Source: Thermoplasmatota archaeon
GTDB lineage: Archaea; Thermoplasmatota; Penumbrarchaeia; Penumbrarchaeales; Penumbrarchaeaceae
Length of the DNA stretch: 26,691 nt
Assembly: GCA_965234725.1 (NCBI GenBank)
Contig: CBDDUX010000020.1
Location: 1 to 26,691, forward strand
Reading direction: 5' to 3'
How positions within the stretch are numbered: the stretch's first letter is position 1; every line of letters begins with the position of its first letter. Positions 545 to 26,691 of this stretch are shown piece by piece. Below the pieces are notes generated by a model. The model was not told the DNA's origin and did not search any database. It saw only the letters and a program-made list of their open reading frames with translations. A program made the position numbers and the translations under genes.

Positions 545-594
545 GAGTATTCAATGATTATCTGGCTAATAAAAGTTACGGGTAAATATAAAAG

Positions 595-668
595 AGCCAC
601 CAGAGAGATTCGAACTCTCGACCTGCTGATTACAAGTCAGCCGCTCAACCGGGCTAAGCTATGGTGGC
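595..668 (-). tRNA. tRNA-Thr(UGU), CCA not encoded
   Basis: Reverse complement GCCACCATAGCTTAGCCCGGTTGAGCGGCTGACTTGTAATCAGCAGGTCGAGAGTTCGAATCTCTCTGGTGGCT folds as a cloverleaf: anticodon arm GCTGA-CTTGTAA-TCAGC, T-loop TTCGAAT. Confidence 0.96.
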
Positions 669-13219: not shown

Positions 13220-13573
13220 ATGTCAGGAATTTTCTTCTTATCAACAAGAAATCTTCTATCTATGGTCGAATTCTACAAGGAAAGGATCGGCATGGATGTC
13301 TGGTTGGAACAGGCGGACTGCATTATCTTTCAACATGGGAACCTTCTCCTTGGATTCTGTAAAAGAGACCATGCCGATACCGATGGAATGATCACATTCT
13401 TCTTTGATACAAATGATAAAGTGGACCAATTCTACAATAAGTTCAAAGAATCATCTGTAGGCCCCCCTAAGACCAACAAGAAGTACGGTATCTACCATTT
13501 CTTCTGCAAGGACCCCGAAGGAAGGGATGTTGAATTCCAGAGGTTCTTGACCTCTCCTTCATCACCCTGTTGA
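13220..13573 (+). CDS. VOC/glyoxalase-family protein
   Basis: FY---IG and FFCKDPEGRDVEF motifs; single-domain size. 3' end overlaps the convergent GNAT-fusion gene by 12 bp. Confidence 0.85.
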   Translation: MSGIFFLSTRNLLSMVEFYKERIGMDVWLEQADCIIFQHGNLLLGFCKRDHADTDGMITFFFDTNDKVDQFYNKFKESSVGPPKTNKKYGIYHFFCKDPEGRDVEFQRFLTSPSSPC

Positions 13574-15112
13574 TACCGTCGGATGATCCCTATCGAAAAC
13601 AAGTTCCAGAAGGATCTCGTTCATTTCAATTCCATTCAGAATGTGGCTTCCCCTCAGTTCACCCACTCTTCTGAAGCCGGATGATCCAAGGATCCTCAGT
13701 GACCTTTCATTTTCCTTCACAACCCTGGCAATGACCCTTCTTGCTTTGATCCGGTCTTTACACAATCTGAGTATTCCTTCGACCATGATACCACCCAGAC
13801 CCTTTCCCCTTTGGTCCTTTTCTCCTATGAGAAATGAAATTTCACAGGTCCTGTTCCATTTGGAGATATCATAGATCGAACCGAAACCGATCCTTTTACC
13901 ACCCTGTGTCTCAACGATCATATCAAGGTCATTATCATTCAGGAGCATGTTAAGGACAAGGTCTTCCCTTGTGAGTCTGATCTCAGGTTCATCCATAGTT
14001 CTGGCGATAACTGGATCGTTCATCCATCCAAGTATGGTTTCAATATCCTCAAGACCTACCTCTCTGAAGATCAAACCACCCTTCCTTGAATCGAATATCT
14101 TAGGTTTCTTCCTTGGTTGGGGTTTGAGTCCATATCTGGTTACGGCCTTTGAGAGGATCCTTTCTATCATTTCAGCATATGACATATCCATCTGGCGGCA
14201 GCTCCTGAAGAAACCACTATCCTCTCCTATGCCGGGATTTGGATTGACCTCAATTATGTATGGTTTACCATCACGGATCCTAATATCGACCCTCCCGTAA
14301 TCCTTCAGGCCAAGTGCTCTGTATGCATCTCTGGCGACAGATATGGTAAGTATTTCGATGTTCTTAGGGAGATCTGCTGGACAAACCCCTTTTGTCCCTT
14401 CATAACTTTTCGAACCTTCAGTCCATTTCGCATCGAAGTCAACGATATTTGGGGAAGTGGGATCCATTTCGAATAATATCTCAGAGAGGGGTAGGACCAT
14501 TATGTCAGAACCGTTGCCGATTATTGCAGCATTGATCTCTCTTCCATCTATGAACTCCTCCACGATGGCCGGTTGTTCGAAGGTCTCAATGATATGGTCT
14601 ATTCTCTTGAACAGCTCCAATTTATTATGAACCACAGATCCTTTGTCTATCCCAATGCTTGCATCCTCATGAAGAGGTTTGACAATAAGAGGGAATCTAA
14701 GTCTTGGATCGAGTTTCTGGGATGTTGCATGGAATACCTGATAATCTGGTGAAGGAAGATTGTTCGCTCTTAGAACCTGTTTCGTCCTGGCTTTGTCTAG
14801 ACAAAGGGAAAGAGTGAGCGGTCCGGATCCGGTATAAGGCATTCCCATTAGCTCGAAATAGGCTGCGATCCAGGATTCTCCTGAAGGGTCTCCCTGAAAG
14901 CTTTCACAAAGATTGAGAACGATATCTGCAGAATCCCGTTTTAATTTGCCGATAAGGTCGCTTGAGAAGTTCAATGGAATGATCTCAAAATCCTGTCCGA
15001 CTGATCCCAATACGGACCCCACCGTATTGATAATGTCATTGTCTGATACGGAATGCCCTTCTTTGACTTTCTCAGGATCATCCACCATGTTGTACAGTAA
15101 CAGTACTCTCAA
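13562..15112 (-). CDS. Ddl-like ATP-grasp ligase fused to a C-terminal RimJ/RimL-type GNAT acetyltransferase
   Basis: ATP-grasp: NLCE, PYTGS, DKARTK, FPLIVKP..EDASIGI, EEFIDGRE, RVDIR, IEVNPNPG. GNAT (approx. 13562-14080): QRGKGLG, NERSLRIL..SGF. TTG start with RBS GAGGTGAT (15116-15123) overlapping the upstream stop. Confidence 0.9.
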   Translation of the reverse strand: MRVLLLYNMVDDPEKVKEGHSVSDNDIINTVGSVLGSVGQDFEIIPLNFSSDLIGKLKRDSADIVLNLCESFQGDPSGESWIAAYFELMGMPYTGSGPLTLSLCLDKARTKQVLRANNLPSPDYQVFHATSQKLDPRLRFPLIVKPLHEDASIGIDKGSVVHNKLELFKRIDHIIETFEQPAIVEEFIDGREINAAIIGNGSDIMVLPLSEILFEMDPTSPNIVDFDAKWTEGSKSYEGTKGVCPADLPKNIEILTISVARDAYRALGLKDYGRVDIRIRDGKPYIIEVNPNPGIGEDSGFFRSCRQMDMSYAEMIERILSKAVTRYGLKPQPRKKPKIFDSRKGGLIFREVGLEDIETILGWMNDPVIARTMDEPEIRLTREDLVLNMLLNDNDLDMIVETQGGKRIGFGSIYDISKWNRTCEISFLIGEKDQRGKGLGGIMVEGILRLCKDRIKARRVIARVVKENERSLRILGSSGFRRVGELRGSHILNGIEMNEILLELVFDRDHPTVSTG

Positions 15113-15116
15113 GGGA

Positions 15117-17201
15117 TCACCTCATGGAAAGATTGTATCTTTTCAAGGCTGCATCCATTATGGCGGCGATGATATCATCATAGTCCATCCCGTCAGCAAA
15201 ACAGGCCCTTGTGAACCTTGAATTATCACTTCTATTAGGCATGAGGCCTGGAAGAGTGTTAACATCAAACACATTGGGAGTGTCGTTCGCGTCCAGTCTG
15301 AGATCTATCCTGCATAGGTCCGAGCATCCCAGCACCGAGAACGTATCCCTTGCAACCTTTTCGATCTTCTTTTTAAGGGCAGGCTTGAGATCAGCTGGAC
15401 ATATGACGGGGTCCTTGATGTTCGATGGGTTATCATAGATCCATTTCGCCTCATAAGAATCGAACCTGTTCAGTTCATCAGGAAGATGGGTGAAATCTAT
15501 CTCGATTATCGGAAGGACCTTTGGCCTGCTATTGCCCAGAAGTGCTACGGTGAACTCCCTTCCGCTTAGGTATTCCTCCACAAGAGCATTTTGCTTGTAT
15601 ATTTTGAGTACTTTGCTGACCTCTCTTCTGAGGGAATCCTGATCCCGGACCAGGGAAGAATCTGAAATTCCCACGCTCGAACCCTCTGCATCGGGTTTCA
15701 CGATCAACGGGAAATTCAGTAAAGAGTTCAACTTCTGGTTCGTGGACCTGAAGACCTGGAACTTGGGAGTGGGGATCCCATAATAGGTGAGTATCTCCTT
15801 TTTTCGACTTTTATTAAGTGTGATCGCCTGGGTCAGGACGCCTGATCCGGAATATGGAATGTTCATCATCTCAAGTATGGAAGGTATATGGGATTCCCTG
15901 GACTCCCCCTGGATCCCCTCCGCGATGTTGAAGATAAAATCCACATCTGCTTCCATCAGTCTTTCCATGAAGCCCTGATCAGCCTCAAGAAGAACAACAT
16001 CATATCCTATCCTGTCAAGGGATTTCCTAATGGCATCTATTGTTTCAATGTCATCATATTCTGCATACCTGTCCAACCTTTCTCCCTTTGCTGGTTCCTT
16101 CTTCAGGTTGAATGCGATCCCGACCTTCCTGATCCTTTTATTGGAAAGTTTCTTTTCGGGTTTTGTTCTTGTTCCTGGATATTTGAAAAGATGGTCCAGA
16201 TAATTGGTAACAATGACCTCATCAGGGGTTATCTCCTGGACATAATCCGGTGAGACGGGAACCTTTCCTCCGGGCCCATCGATAACAAAATGAGGCACAG
16301 CCAGACCTGATGTGAACCCTTGAAGCGCCTTCATTATTTCTATGCCCTTCTCCACTGGGGTCCTGAAGTGTTCAACGCCCTTTACAAGATCACATTGGTA
16401 GATGTAATATGGCCTGACCCTGTTCTTGAGGAGGGTCAGCATCAATTCCTTCATGGTCTCAGGATCGTCATTTACCCCCTTGAGAAGAACAGTCTGGCTC
16501 CCCAGTGGTATGCCTGCATCTGCTATCAAGGCCAATGCGACCTCGGTCTGTTTTGTGATCTCTCTGGGGTGGTTGAAGTGGATGTTCATGAATACAGGGT
16601 TGTACTTCGCTATCATCTTCACCAAATGGGGAGTGATCCGTTTCGGATTCACACAGGGCATTCGTGTACCCAACCTGATGATCTCAATGTGTGGGATGGA
16701 CCTGAGGTTTTCAAGTATCTGTTCAATTTCGGAATCGGTCCTCATCAATGGGTCCCCGCCGGAAACTATGACATCTCTTATCTCCTCGTGTTCTCGAATA
16801 TAATCTATAGCAGTCAAAATGGACTCCATGGGGATCTGGGATAATCTTCCGACCTTTCTCTTCCTCGTACAAAACCTGCAGTACATGGCACATTTCGAAC
16901 TGGCAAGAAGGAGGACCCTGTCGGGGTACTTGTGAACAAGGTAGGGGACAGGAGTGTTCTCCTCTTCTTTCAGAGGATCCTCCTCATTGAAATGGTCCTC
17001 CAGTTCCTGAATGTCCGGAATGCACTGTTTCCAAATAGGATCGTCCTTCTCTTCGACAAGGTCCATATAATAAGGTGTTACCTTCATGGGGTATCTTCTC
17101 TTAACCTTCTCTATCGATCTGCTATCTGCGCCAAGGTCGTCCAATTTTGACCCGGTGAGGTTCTTATGGTCACTGCTGATCTGTTGGGTTTCCACATCCA
17201 T
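15117..17201 (-). CDS. KamA-family radical SAM/PLP 2,3-aminomutase fused to a C-terminal Ddl-like ATP-grasp ligase
   Basis: HKYPDRV, CAMYCRFC (CX3CX2C) TRKR, SGGDP, HFNHP, QTVLLKGVND, YIYQCD, FVIDGPGGK (PLP Lys); then FNIAEG, PYSGS, FPLIVKP..EGSSVGI, EEYLSGRE, RIDLR, DVNTLPG. Start is ATG 17201 or GTG 17210. Confidence 0.92.
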   Translation of the reverse strand: MDVETQQISSDHKNLTGSKLDDLGADSRSIEKVKRRYPMKVTPYYMDLVEEKDDPIWKQCIPDIQELEDHFNEEDPLKEEENTPVPYLVHKYPDRVLLLASSKCAMYCRFCTRKRKVGRLSQIPMESILTAIDYIREHEEIRDVIVSGGDPLMRTDSEIEQILENLRSIPHIEIIRLGTRMPCVNPKRITPHLVKMIAKYNPVFMNIHFNHPREITKQTEVALALIADAGIPLGSQTVLLKGVNDDPETMKELMLTLLKNRVRPYYIYQCDLVKGVEHFRTPVEKGIEIMKALQGFTSGLAVPHFVIDGPGGKVPVSPDYVQEITPDEVIVTNYLDHLFKYPGTRTKPEKKLSNKRIRKVGIAFNLKKEPAKGERLDRYAEYDDIETIDAIRKSLDRIGYDVVLLEADQGFMERLMEADVDFIFNIAEGIQGESRESHIPSILEMMNIPYSGSGVLTQAITLNKSRKKEILTYYGIPTPKFQVFRSTNQKLNSLLNFPLIVKPDAEGSSVGISDSSLVRDQDSLRREVSKVLKIYKQNALVEEYLSGREFTVALLGNSRPKVLPIIEIDFTHLPDELNRFDSYEAKWIYDNPSNIKDPVICPADLKPALKKKIEKVARDTFSVLGCSDLCRIDLRLDANDTPNVFDVNTLPGLMPNRSDNSRFTRACFADGMDYDDIIAAIMDAALKRYNLSMR

Positions 17202-17212
17202 TATTATCACTA

Positions 17213-23777: not shown

Positions 23778-24569
23778 ATGGTTGAGAAGGGGACCTTTTC
23801 ATGGAAAGGGTTCTATAATAATGAGAGGAAATTGAAGGCTGAAGAAATTAGCCGAAGGATAGAGGAACTTAAAGACATCAAGGACCAAGAAGTCCTGAAT
23901 GTCATTGAGAAAGGAGGGGTCCTCTCATTTCCTCATACAGTTCTAGAAGGGTCCCTCGACCCGGTTATCAGGACCGTAAAGGCCCTGATCGATTCGAAGA
24001 AGGACAAGGTTATCGCCCTTGCAGTAGTCCATTACGGGAACCACGGACCTTCTGATGAGTTCTCATTGGATACATTCCTCCATGTAATGGATAAGATGAA
24101 GAAGAGGTTTGATTTGGATCTCCCGGAAGTGGAAGCTCTCTATCCTCCCGACGACAAGTCTCCGTACAAGGACCTTGATGATAGAATGAACCGATCCATT
24201 GGAGATGCTGAAAAGATAATGGACAGGATCGATGGGTCCACGGCAATAGTAATGACAGGGGATATCTGCCATTACGGCAATTTCTACAAGAGGACCTCTG
24301 AAATGGAAGATTATCGGAAGCAGATCGATATTTGGGTTGAAGAATCCATGGACCTTCTCTATCACAAAGGGGACTATTTGAAATATCTTGGAGAAGTAAG
24401 GAAATCCGGAAATGATCAATTCAATCTTGCCATAATGGTAAAGCATCTTCTTGGTAAGGACCTTGATTATGAATTCTTCCAGAAGAAGATAACTGATTAT
24501 TCGAAGATACTGGATGAACCGCCTCCGGTCCTTGTGGCTTCTTACTTCTACGGTGTCTGGAAAAGATGA
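23778..24569 (+). CDS. Hypothetical protein, possibly MEMO1/LigB-like fold
   Basis: FPHT, VVH, EFS and TGDICHYG resemble MEMO1-family PH, H, EHS and SDxxHYG motifs. Confidence 0.55.
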   Translation: MVEKGTFSWKGFYNNERKLKAEEISRRIEELKDIKDQEVLNVIEKGGVLSFPHTVLEGSLDPVIRTVKALIDSKKDKVIALAVVHYGNHGPSDEFSLDTFLHVMDKMKKRFDLDLPEVEALYPPDDKSPYKDLDDRMNRSIGDAEKIMDRIDGSTAIVMTGDICHYGNFYKRTSEMEDYRKQIDIWVEESMDLLYHKGDYLKYLGEVRKSGNDQFNLAIMVKHLLGKDLDYEFFQKKITDYSKILDEPPPVLVASYFYGVWKR

Positions 24570-24590
24570 ACACCAATTGGTGAATCACGA

Positions 24591-24657
24591 TTCTAATCCC
24601 AAGACACACCTATGGGACCTACCGCTACACGATAGGTCATTGGCGCCCCGGATGGGA
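24591..24657 (-). repeat. Partial distal copy of the 143-bp unit, including 17 nt of the tRNA-Arg 3' end with CCA
   Basis: TTCTAATCCCAAGACACACC...TGGCGCCCCGGATGGGA matches the array unit with one mismatch. Confidence 0.9.
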
Positions 24658-24844
24658 GGGGTGGGATCGTAAAATAATTTACGATAAGCAAGATCCAACC
24701 CCTGAGATGAAAAACGATTTCAATTACCTATCATTATTTTTCATCGTGTATGATCATCTTTAGCTGATAATTCCATAACTTTGTGGATCGACGAACGGAA
24801 TTATCAGCGGGAAAGGGGCGCGCTTAAAATCAAAATGAAATCAA

Positions 24845-25436
24845 GCGCCCCGGATGGGATTCGACGCAGCTAACCCGCTTTGCGGCTCAGCGCGCCTGGA
24901 ACCGCAGAATAGGTGTGGCGGTTCCAGGACCAAGGTTCGAATCCCAAGACACACCTATGGGACCTACCGCTACACGATAGGTCATTGGCGCCCCGGATGG
25001 GATTCGACGCAGCTAACCCGCTTTGCGGCTCAGCGCGCCTGGAACCGCAGAATAGGTGTGGCGGTTCCAGGACCAAGGTTCGAATCCCAAGACACACCTA
25101 TGGGACCTACCGCTACACGATAGGTCATTGGCGCCCCGGATGGGATTCGACGCAGCTAACCCGCTTTGCGGCTCAGCGCGCCTGGAACCGCAGAATAGGT
25201 GTGGCGGTTCCAGGACCAAGGTTCGAATCCCAAGACACACCTATGGGACCTACCGCTATGCGATAGGTCATTGGCGCCCCGGATGGGATTCGACGCAGCT
25301 AACCCGCTTTGCGGCTCAGCGCGCCTGGAACCGCAGAATAGGTGTGGCGGTTCCAGGACCAAGGTTCGAATCCCAAGACACACCTATGGGACCTACCGCT
25401 ATGCGATAGGTCATTGGCGCCCCGGATGGGATTCGA
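24845..25436 (-). repeat. Tandem array of 4 x 143-bp tRNA-linked structured repeats
   Basis: Units start at 24845, 24988, 25131 and 25274; a fifth start at 25417 is the tRNA itself. Units are identical except for a CA/TG dinucleotide. Each carries 20-22 nt of the tRNA-Arg 3' end. Confidence 0.97.
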
Positions 25437-25491
25437 ACCCATGTCAAAAGCTCCGCAAGCTCTCAGGATATCCAGGCTACCCTACCGGGGC
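25415..25491 (-). tRNA. tRNA-Arg(GCG), CCA encoded
   Basis: Reverse complement GCCCCGGTAGGGTAGCCTGGATATCCTGAGAGCTTGCGGAGCTTTTGACATGGGTTCGAATCCCATCCGGGGCGCCA: acceptor GCCCCGG/CCGGGGC, anticodon loop TTGCGGA, T arm ATGGG-TTCGAAT-CCCAT. Confidence 0.95.
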
Positions 25492-25529
25492 ACTCATTGA
25501 AAAGCGGGAGTTGCCCTAAAGTAGAGGAT

Positions 25530-25545
25530 TATTAAAATCATTTGG
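25530..25545 (-). promoter_or_regulatory. Putative BRE/TATA promoter of tRNA-Arg
   Basis: Minus strand CCAAATGATTTTAATA about 39-54 nt upstream of the tRNA. Confidence 0.55.
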
Positions 25546-25676
25546 CCCATGATTATATATTGGACGTCCAGACAAGTGGAAAATTAGACCATTTATTTGG
25601 ATATAATGCACGAGTCCGAGAAATGGCTTCAAAGGTCTTGTTGAACCAGGATTGATACCTTTGAGGGGTGTTATCC

Positions 25677-26691
25677 TTGGATATTGATCATTTCATTTCA
25701 GGTGATCAGCATCCTATTGATCGATTAATAGAAGAGGTCTTGAAGCAGGATAGAATAGATTCTGCTAAAAAAGATATTCATAAATCGTCGATCGAGAACA
25801 AAAAATTGCATAAAGGAAATTCTGCTGTTTCAAGATTACTTCAATTATTCATTGAAAATCCAGATAAACAATACACACCTAATGAGATCACAGAAGAACA
25901 CCTTCGAATGAAATCGGGGACATGTCGGGCTCGGTTATCAGAACTATTTGAAGCGGGATACATTCGGAAGGTCTGGGATCCAGTACATTCAAGGTATCAT
26001 TATGGACTTTATGAATTGAATGTATCTGAACCCCTCATACATCCAGGAACAGCTCCCAGGTGTTTTCACGGTTACAAGATTCATTTAAAAAGGCCTTTGT
26101 ATCGAATTCCTTCTGGAAAAGGGAAAAATAAGGTTGTCCAGTGTTCCCCGGATGAGTTTCGGGCTCGGTTATATTCATCTGAAGTTCGCCAATTTATCAA
26201 GTTATCTGAGAAAGACACAAATTTGAATCATGCATGGGTATTCGAGGGATTTTGGAGAAAGAGGAGAATATCTGTCACTGTCCAACATGGTAATTCAAGT
26301 CTTATAGAAATTTGGTGTAAGGCCACGGAAAAACCCCTCGATATCGATGATTTCATTGAATATAATCGGATGTGGAATTGTGCCATTCCTGATATATGGG
26401 TAGAATCGACTCCTCTTGTTGTTCAACTTGGAATCAACCATGATATTCCTCGGGTTCTGATCGATGGTGTTCAACGATTGAAAGTCCAGGCTCTTCATGA
26501 ATACATGGTCCAGGCTTATAATAAAGATGGAGTTCTTCGGATCGAATCCCATATTAACAAGGCCATGCCACAAACGGCAGTTATGAGGGCCCTACAAGGA
26601 ACTGTTCTTGAAGTTAACTCATTCTTCGACCGTGTAGATCTATCGGTACTAGAGAAGCAGAATAAACAGCAATTCGACCGGATCAAGGACC
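25677..26691 (+). CDS. Partial ORF (runs off window end): winged HTH plus possible Rep_trans-like nickase domain
   Basis: Manual translation from TTG 25677 (RBS GAGGGGTG) is open for 338 codons. wHTH: YTPNEITEEHLRMKSGTCRARLSELFEAGYIRK. Later motifs QLGINHD, QAYNK, LRIESH. Not in the supplied ORF track. The ORF is well supported; the Rep call is tentative. Confidence 0.7.
   Translation, partial: MDIDHFISGDQHPIDRLIEEVLKQDRIDSAKKDIHKSSIENKKLHKGNSAVSRLLQLFIENPDKQYTPNEITEEHLRMKSGTCRARLSELFEAGYIRKVWDPVHSRYHYGLYELNVSEPLIHPGTAPRCFHGYKIHLKRPLYRIPSGKGKNKVVQCSPDEFRARLYSSEVRQFIKLSEKDTNLNHAWVFEGFWRKRRISVTVQHGNSSLIEIWCKATEKPLDIDDFIEYNRMWNCAIPDIWVESTPLVVQLGINHDIPRVLIDGVQRLKVQALHEYMVQAYNKDGVLRIESHINKAMPQTAVMRALQGTVLEVNSFFDRVDLSVLEKQNKQQFDRIKD

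Follow-up and report, generated by a model that had tools for sequence, protein, structure and literature searches.

Directly behind the gene of the arginine transfer RNA (tRNA) with the anticodon GCG, tRNA-Arg(GCG), the genome of a Thermoplasmatota archaeon (assembly GCA_965234725.1, contig CBDDUX010000020.1, positions 1–26,691; this whole stretch of 26,691 nt is called the window) carries a tandem array of four 143-nt units, each with a copy of the 3′ end of that same tRNA as its own end. The units belong to a family of cassettes with a conserved hairpin structure, which stand behind tRNA genes throughout the sampled genomes of the archaeal order, bear the tail of whichever tRNA precedes them and change in number between close species. 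Taken together, the array is tentatively regarded, at somewhat less than even confidence, as a tandemly amplified, tRNA-anchored hairpin cassette of lineage-wide occurrence, similar to the tRNA-linked repeats (TLRs) of Escherichia coli; it is inherited at its locus and would vary in copy number by unequal recombination, probably be transcribed by read-through from the tRNA, and receive new members at the T-loop.

Layout of the array and predicted fold of its unit

The tRNA-Arg(GCG) gene, in which the CCA is encoded, lies at 25415–25491 on the minus strand (ARAGORN; 55.1 bits to the Rfam tRNA family). Its positions 55–76, TCGAATCCCATCCGGGGCGCCA, recur downstream in the array, which is described by Tandem Repeats Finder as a repeat at 24845–25436 with a period of 143, 4.1 copies, 99% matches and a score of 1156. 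Unit 1 abuts the CCA of the tRNA with no gap, all four 143-nt units are on the tRNA strand, and each of them consists of 121 nt followed by TCGAATCCCATCCGGGGCGCCA, with the exception of unit 4, which has the end GCGCTT instead of GCGCCA. The original prediction, made from the letters of the DNA, had described the tRNA, the 143-nt units with the tRNA's own tail, the division into 121 nt plus tail and the deviating distal end in this same way, and all of this is borne out by the three programs and by the sequence. Counted from the tRNA, the units are all of type A and on the minus strand: unit 1 (25272–25414; 125.1 bits with the covariance model R1, treated below) and unit 2 (25129–25271) have the same sequence (100% identity), unit 3 (24986–25128) differs from them in two adjacent bases of the first hairpin P0 (CA versus TG), one of which makes a C-G pair U-G in the tRNA-sense fold, and unit 4 (24843–24985) is like unit 3 apart from its end. 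The identity of the tail to tRNA-Arg covers 22 nt in units 1–3 and 20 nt in unit 4, and the mutual identity of the units within the array is 97–100%. Moreover, the 15-mer TCCCATCCGGGGCGC occurs six times in the window, always on the minus strand, versus 0.00 expected (100 shuffles).

Beyond unit 4, the array continues on the same strand with a 202-nt module of another type (type C, 24641–24842), recognized by its sequence, which recurs behind other tRNAs. It is made up of a 5′ hairpin on the tRNA tail, a hairpin GATGAAAAAT...CGTTTTTCATC and a hairpin CAGGGG...CCCCT; the GCGCTT end of unit 4 pairs with AAGCGCGCCCC of this module, and the module ends in tRNA positions 61–76, that is, in a 17-nt copy at 24641–24657. 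This extra copy had been seen before and is indeed present, but the stretch of some 190 nt that separates it from unit 4 is a complete type C module and not spacer. A truncated fifth type A unit beyond the 17-nt copy had been missed (24586–24640, minus strand; repeat family D2); only P0 and the start of the inverted T-arm are left of it, and roughly 20 nt separate it from the stop codon of the adjacent gene (open reading frame (ORF) 23778–24569). In total, the array comprises the four complete type A units, the type C module and the remnant of a fifth unit. Within the R1-modelled part of the units, as well as between tRNA-Arg and unit 1, the longest T run is 2, which agrees with the earlier statement that no T-tract terminator separates the tRNA from the array; the first T-rich stretch of the array comes after unit 4. 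On the plus strand, four overlapping ORFs of 89–117 amino acids (24854–25519) cross the array opposite the tRNA; since 143 is not a multiple of three, these ORFs shift frame from unit to unit, and they are most likely spurious.

As tRNA-sense RNA, unit 3 is predicted to fold with −76.8 kcal/mol (z −6.65; a value matched by none of 200 shuffles), whereas its opposite strand reaches only −57 kcal/mol (z −2.57). The predicted fold starts with the trailer hairpin P0 (25390–25412 in unit 1; all positions in this fold are on the minus strand) and proceeds to a three-way junction, which is closed by P1 and encloses P2 and P3. In P1, TGGGATTCGA near the 5′ end of the unit (25366–25375) pairs with TCGAATCCCA of the tail copy, so that the 5′ strand of P1 repeats the tRNA's own T-loop and T-stem in inverted form. 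P1 is joined to P2 (25324–25357) by the conserved single strand ACCTTGGT (25358–25365), P3 follows at 25294–25323, and the unit is completed by the 3′ strand of P1 with the tail, i.e., tRNA 55–76, at 25272–25293. The last 12 nt (the acceptor 3′ strand and CCA) are unpaired in the consensus, and pair weakly via G-U in the array unit's own fold. Six tRNA-Arg type A units of two genomes are more stable in tRNA sense by 7.5–11.7 kcal/mol, with 5–6 G-U pairs in tRNA sense versus none in antisense; across all module types of two genomes, the sense strand is the more stable one in 35 of 51 units, and among the R1 matches there are 52 G-U cells versus 18 A-C cells, which favours the tRNA-sense strand.

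In Rfam 15, searched with positions 24000–26000, only the tRNA is above the gathering score, and there is no match within the units at E values up to 1; the two weak, chance-level matches concern the tRNA gene and the type C module. Several known structural elements were considered and set aside. A pseudoknot, suggested in the source genome by the complementarity of the P2 loop CACACCTAT to the upstream ATAGGTGTG, pairs less strongly in the congener and no longer in the Lys-type pair, and is possibly due to chance; bulge-helix-bulge splicing was rejected since no such motif was seen at the borders by eye (no tool was run for it), and a hammerhead ribozyme since the junction strands, compared by eye, do not match its core. 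Similarly, no AT-rich box was seen by eye in the units (62% G+C), no archaeal promoter scan having been run. Co-transcription with the tRNA and processing to CCA-ended RNAs of 143 nt would be compatible with the lack of a T-tract, the lack of an AT-rich box and the predicted tRNA-sense fold.

A family of cassettes behind tRNA genes

The array is not confined to one tRNA. ARAGORN finds 40 tRNAs in the source genome, 11 of which are followed within 1.5 kb by an exact 14-nt copy of their tail; for 13, a copy of their own 13-nt 3′ block, with one mismatch allowed, lies within 1 kb on the downstream side. For eight of the 40 tRNA genes less than 100 nt of contig remain on the downstream side, so that many contigs break at tRNAs; in a better-assembled congener, own-tail copies are found at 20 of 30 tRNA loci. 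At least three module types recur, mixed in varied orders, types A and B sharing the same plan, and type C modules stand also behind tRNA-Leu(GAG), Gly(GCC), Gly(CCC) and Glu(TTC). It had been proposed to look for the unit behind other tRNAs with a correspondingly swapped 3′ end, and such units are indeed found, both in the source genome and in the whole order.

The distribution was followed with R1, a covariance model built from 11 units of seven genomes. In the source genome R1 gives 13 matches, every one in a tRNA trailer: 11 behind tRNAs called by ARAGORN, one at the start of contig C69, and one at a tRNA-Ser-like sequence which ARAGORN does not call. All 24 genomes of the family have matches (2 to 25 per genome), and so do all 25 other genomes sampled from the order. 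In a sample of the class (37 genomes of nine families, f1–f9), positives are 23/23 in f1, 2/2 in f2, 1/1 in f4 and 1/2 in f8, with weak single matches in f5 and f9 and no match in f3 (0/1), f6 (0/1) and f7 (0/4). In addition, a 19-nt core pattern was found in 40 stretches among 185,579 species genomes, 32 of them in Thermoplasmatota, Thermoplasmata or Thermoplasmatales metagenome-assembled genomes; the other eight lie in assorted bacteria and are within our estimate of about 17 chance matches. One Thermoplasmatales record (L155) has three motif copies, at spacings of 144 and 345 nt.

The tRNA context was checked in 19 loci fetched from other genomes, with 19 R1 matches. A same-strand tRNA lies 5–170 nt upstream in 19 of 19 cases, representing 13 tRNA species, and in 14 of them at least 16 nt are shared with the 3′ end of the upstream tRNA. 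Of 59 evaluable matches, 33 have a direct copy that begins at tRNA position 55 and 39 have an inverted copy that begins at position 52, the inverted copy spanning T-loop/T-stem positions 52–64. Furthermore, the T-loop variant of the tRNA (TTCGAAT or TTCAAAT) is mirrored in the inverted copy, the corresponding pair 30–272 being C-G in 36 cases and U-A in 16. Since P1 joins the inverted T-arm copy to the direct tail copy, each cassette bears the tail of the preceding tRNA.

In the alignment of the 11 units, compensatory changes are found in 21 of the 29 predicted pairs. A larger set was formed by 62 R1 matches, 59 of them distinct, among the matches listed. Here paired cells reach 93.9% versus 71.8% in shuffles, two-sided change occurs in 25 of the 29 pairs, and compensated cells number 359 versus 99 expected; none of these measures is attained in any of 500 shuffles, and the covariation score is 0.578, with partner-sliding controls at or below 0.097. 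Judged by this modelled alignment, the predicted cassette helices P1–P3 are maintained through compensatory changes.

Two further features of the tRNA surroundings were recorded. A motif of the approximate form ATCCTATYG opens the trailer after the tRNA end or after a tail copy at many loci, whichever the tRNA, and forms the 5′ arm of P0. On the other side of the gene, tandem units stand 5′ of tRNA-Arg in other genera (locus L040, 1080–1500, in genome G006; also in G007, G012 and G022); these consist of a promoter-like region and the first ~24 nt of the tRNA, then a hairpin, and thus mirror the 3′ cassettes, the stretch in L040 being partly N. As for terminators, runs of at least 5 T are found within 45 nt before 19 of 62 family members; a terminator logic was rejected, since such runs are similarly frequent before the modules (19/62) and after them (20/62).

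Inheritance, turnover and readings of the array

At the same locus, the congener (20 contigs) has an identical tRNA, two type A units, a type C module and a truncated type A unit; its second unit likewise ends in GCGCTT, and the truncated unit is kept longer, through P2. Unit identity is 97–100% within the source genome, 97% within the congener and 91–94% between the two genomes, for which the type C module shows 92.1% and the flanking gene 88%. Since the layout is common to the congener, the array has been inherited at the locus and its copy number is changeable; and copies that are alike within each genome, together with the shift in copy number, are the signature of unequal recombination or conversion. 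The order of the unit variants along the array, a-a-b-b, also fits unequal recombination. Among the 14 related genomes that were read, 10 have tRNA-Arg(GCG) with a unit, in seven genera of f1 and one genus of f2, and these units copy each genome's own tRNA tail.

Turnover of the family is evident as well. The congeners differ in the presence or number of modules at tRNA-Asp, Thr(TGT), Thr(CGT), Val(GAC), Lys, Met, Gly(TCC), Leu(CAA) and Glu(CTC). At tRNA-Asp, for example, the source genome keeps the trailer and the inverted T-arm, and the congener a full unit with the same end piece; a truncated unit is frequent at array ends. Extra units adjoin the tRNA at tRNA-Gly(GCC) of the congener, and behind tRNA-Arg of genome G011 the unit orthologous to that of G005 is displaced to third place. 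This displaced unit of G011 (L042) carries a 56-nt insertion of two hairpins in its inverted T-arm, precisely at the border of the T-stem and T-loop parts (60/61); a homologous 56-nt insertion at the same boundary lies in a direct copy behind tRNA-Gly(TCC) of the source genome (G000, contig C63, near 68013), and the nested 56-nt module aligns in both orientations, with scores of 68 and 56. T-arm-like sequence thus seems to attract insertions at the loop borders 54/55 and 60/61.

Possible carriers of the cassettes were sought among the mobile genes of the genome, which has seven matches to the recombinase family PF00589 (three of them beside tRNA-Thr genes), two Cas1 matches on other contigs and one reverse transcriptase. 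Three tRNA-Thr genes are followed by a small ORF, and at two of them a 310-aa integrase follows the ORF: in the window, tRNA-Thr(TGT) (594–668, minus strand) precedes a 181-aa ORF (2–544) that runs off the contig. On two other contigs, tRNA-Thr(GGT) and tRNA-Thr(CGT) are followed by a 173-aa ORF and then by the 310-aa tyrosine integrase, and the ORF in the window is 45% identical to this 173-aa ORF. A further copy of these tRNA-Thr tails was not found in the assembly, and the array neither includes nor adjoins an ORF with a family match. As dedicated enzyme, both the 310-aa integrase linked to tRNA-Thr (sporadic, 3/37 genomes) and a 390-aa integrase occurring as a pair (sporadic, 1/26 genomes) were rejected. 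On contig C59 of G000 (1–2456, L017), a 407-aa Cas1 gene and a 315-aa ORF stand just downstream of tRNA-Leu(CAG), and the tRNA-side end of this element recurs on contig C55 beside a tRNA-Leu(TAG) fragment; it is probably a casposon, but its end shows no likeness to the units, and a casposon origin of the units was therefore rejected. An HUH transposase (Y1, PF01797) was rejected as well, as it has no match in the genome (97.65% complete) and as the units duplicate 20–22 nt of the target. Reverse transcription from mature tRNA was rejected as a general origin, since the CCA is inconsistent between genes and copies in either direction and the inverted copies pair with trailer bases past the tRNA end. 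Nor was a viral carrier accepted, the core pattern having been found in one of 2.9 million viral contigs, as the antisense of a phage tRNA-Ile gene. Apart from the tRNA genes, the window holds, on the minus strand at 13562–17210, two large fusion ORFs beside an argJ-argC-argD-argB cluster: one of 697 aa with a part resembling radical-SAM lysine-2,3-aminomutase and an ATP-grasp part, and one of 516 aa with ATP-grasp and GNAT acetyltransferase parts.

In the preferred reading, the amplified cassette of the TLR-like family, the four copies would have come from unequal recombination between repeated tails and not from four separate integrations. The cassettes may be transcribed by read-through from the tRNA promoter, and may act, or be selected, as the tRNA-sense single strand. 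The near-palindromic T-loop sequence, the only one common to all target sites and both cassette borders, would be the place where new cassettes enter beside a tRNA, through recombination or template switching. Several observations weigh against this reading. The strand bias is not common to all module types: several type C units are more stable in antisense, so that the strand signal belongs to type A and not to every cassette, and the tRNA-Glu(CTC) units, with −61 kcal/mol in antisense versus −47 in sense and many antisense G-U pairs, behave in a way opposite to type A. The T runs before 19 of the 62 members mean that read-through cannot be general, and the only RNA run that shares words with the stretch (X18) has nothing on it, which is not evidence of silence. 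P1 is mostly the near-universal T-loop palindrome, so that only 1–3 positions are truly specific to the tRNA, and the R1 alignment is fitted to the model, which inflates pairing and favours G-U over A-C. No insertion enzyme was found among the two integrase lineages profiled, the other PF00589 matches and any XerA not being included. The copy number of four is drawn from an assembly of the short-read type. Finally, universal presence and long retention at one tRNA would fit a non-mobile cellular RNA gene as well.

The last point leads to the alternative of a cellular array of non-coding RNA, in which the tRNA transcript would yield a functional small RNA, such as a sponge for a protein or a helper in tRNA maturation, that is retained by selection; the unit would be amplified for dosage and would not be mobile. 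Its occurrence in each sampled genome of the order, its retention behind tRNA-Arg(GCG) in seven f1 genera and one f2 genus, the strong covariation with the tRNA-sense strand favoured, and the precedent of three E. coli repeats behind 5S rRNA, which bind Hfq and CsrA in vitro according to one report (PMC8144298), all speak for it. However, the same core stands at many tRNAs with swapped ends, in variable number and order and often truncated, and at a given tRNA one of two close species may have it and the other lack it; about a third of the members are preceded by T-tracts, the single RNA run sharing words with the stretch gave nothing on it, and Rfam has no family at the gathering score but tRNA, and none within the units. 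This alternative is accordingly thought possible but rather unlikely. More doubtful still is a miniature non-autonomous element, re-integrated again and again by a tyrosine integrase acting in trans at an attachment (att) site in the T-loop, so that the array would be the result of four integrations. The T-loop is a classic place of integrase crossover at tRNA integration sites, and here the direct repeats begin in the T-loop and extend to the tRNA end; different cassette types are stacked, extra ones adjoin the tRNA, congeners differ in presence at the same tRNA, and three of the seven PF00589 matches lie beside tRNA-Thr genes. On the other hand, the layout common to the congener and the copies homogenised in each genome fit amplification in place, and the repeated att integration that had been put forward earlier is not needed; likewise, the suggestion of decoy att sites finds no support. 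The integrases (3/37 and 1/26 genomes) are far from the distribution of the cassettes, which are in all 25 others of the order, the core motif has its one viral match in a phage tRNA gene, and P2, P3, the covariation and the strand bias would serve nothing in a double-stranded att site; a double-stranded circle of 143 bp would be a poor substrate for recombination.

A related and likewise improbable view takes tRNA genes as the docking sites of an integron-like cassette system with the R1 junction as analogue of attC. In that case, the recombination site would be a folded single strand, recognised by its structure and crossed over at the T-loop palindrome; each 143-nt unit would be an empty cassette, and the E. 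coli tRNA-linked repeats might have arisen by the same logic; in a variant without an enzyme, template switching would take place at the universal T-loop palindrome during replication. An assembly artefact, that is, a single true unit multiplied by the assembler, is very hard to credit. The assembly is a draft of 114 contigs, many of which end at tRNA genes, and no contig from the public runs spans the array. Nevertheless, the junctions seen in those contigs agree with the assembly, and the two-base difference between units 1/2 and 3/4 together with unit 4's own end shows that distinct copies were resolved; the 20-contig congener has two units with differences of their own, the Thermoplasmatales record has three motif copies at 144 and 345 nt, and tandem pairs of R1 matches occur in several other genomes. 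Of the DNA runs, one contains 89% of the sampled words and three others contain about a quarter. In run X1, bins that fall entirely within the unit show a read depth of 17,691–37,622 versus 2,367.5 in the flank; such depth is, by the tool's own statement, no copy number, and was rejected as a measure of it.

Comparison with known systems

In integrons, structure-conserved and strand-biased attC sites bound the cassettes, and entry is proximal, a likeness to the array that is drawn by inference. The differences are that, judged by the integrase searches, no IntI-type integrase stands beside the arrays, that the GTTRRRY core seems to be missing and that many tRNAs are used instead of one attI. 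With casposons (family 2), the use of the tRNA 3′ end as target is shared, and a Cas1 gene is found beside tRNA-Leu(CAG) here; the units, however, have neither Cas1 nor matching terminal inverted repeats, and their repeats measure 16–51 nt, whereas the target duplication of casposons is 14–15 bp. Cis-mobilizable elements (CIMEs) are integrase-less derivatives of integrative elements at tRNA genes and can accumulate by tandem accretion. With these and other tRNA-borne integrative elements the cassettes share repeats of the tRNA 3′ end as bounds, stacking at one tRNA and an intact tRNA. They differ in being gene-less units of 120–220 nt with an inverted copy of the target and covarying hairpins, and in that no tested integrase is distributed like the units (3/37 and 1/26 genomes).

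The closest likeness is to the tRNA-linked repeats of E. coli. The literature search brought up E. coli work only and nothing on archaea (subscription journals being outside its coverage), which agrees with the earlier remark that the array is uncharacterised in this archaeal group. Rfam contains an RtT family; the 178-bp units behind tyrT-tyrV give the small RNA RttR, and in the E. coli record rttR is annotated over the first unit behind tyrV. The tyrV trailer of E. coli K-12 comprises three complete units of 178 nt, all of which terminate in the tRNA-Tyr tail; within each, a 10-nt inverted tail copy is predicted to close a multi-hairpin fold with the direct copy; the comparison with tyrT that had been made in the original prediction is thus apt, since the tyrV units show the same plan of a closing stem. 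As described in one report (PMC8144298), the E. coli repeats number 22, spread over ten loci that have one to five units each, and they end in 18–19 nt of the upstream tRNA or rRNA; the same report states that they have been known since 1978 and are still without explanation, and that the three repeats behind 5S rRNA give rise to small RNAs.

In both organisms the units stand directly behind the tRNA on the same strand, with the tail of that tRNA at each 3′ end, and the one to five units per locus in E. coli compare with four full units here. There is no sequence likeness, so that the units have only their plan in common, and common descent is not implied. In the archaeon the direct copy begins at T-loop position 55, and the T-loop palindrome itself makes up the inverted copy; one covarying three-way junction is used with at least 13 tRNA species and at the majority of the tRNA loci in a genome, and the strand preference is different, the E. 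coli units being slightly more stable in antisense. From a practical point of view, such repeats break assemblies at tRNA genes and yield spurious ORFs. The archaeal case is the richer one, with one covarying RNA-like motif behind most tRNA genes of an order; its copies are fitted to their tRNAs, and their gain, loss and amplification can be measured between close species, which offers hundreds of natural variants from which it may be learned what the structure serves and how new tRNAs are reached. A mechanism, if one emerges, would amount either to a novel class of tRNA-linked small RNAs or to a novel route of DNA insertion at tRNA genes. Taken side by side, the bacterial and archaeal cases suggest, by analogy, a common plan, in which inverted and direct copies of the tRNA end close a set of hairpins.

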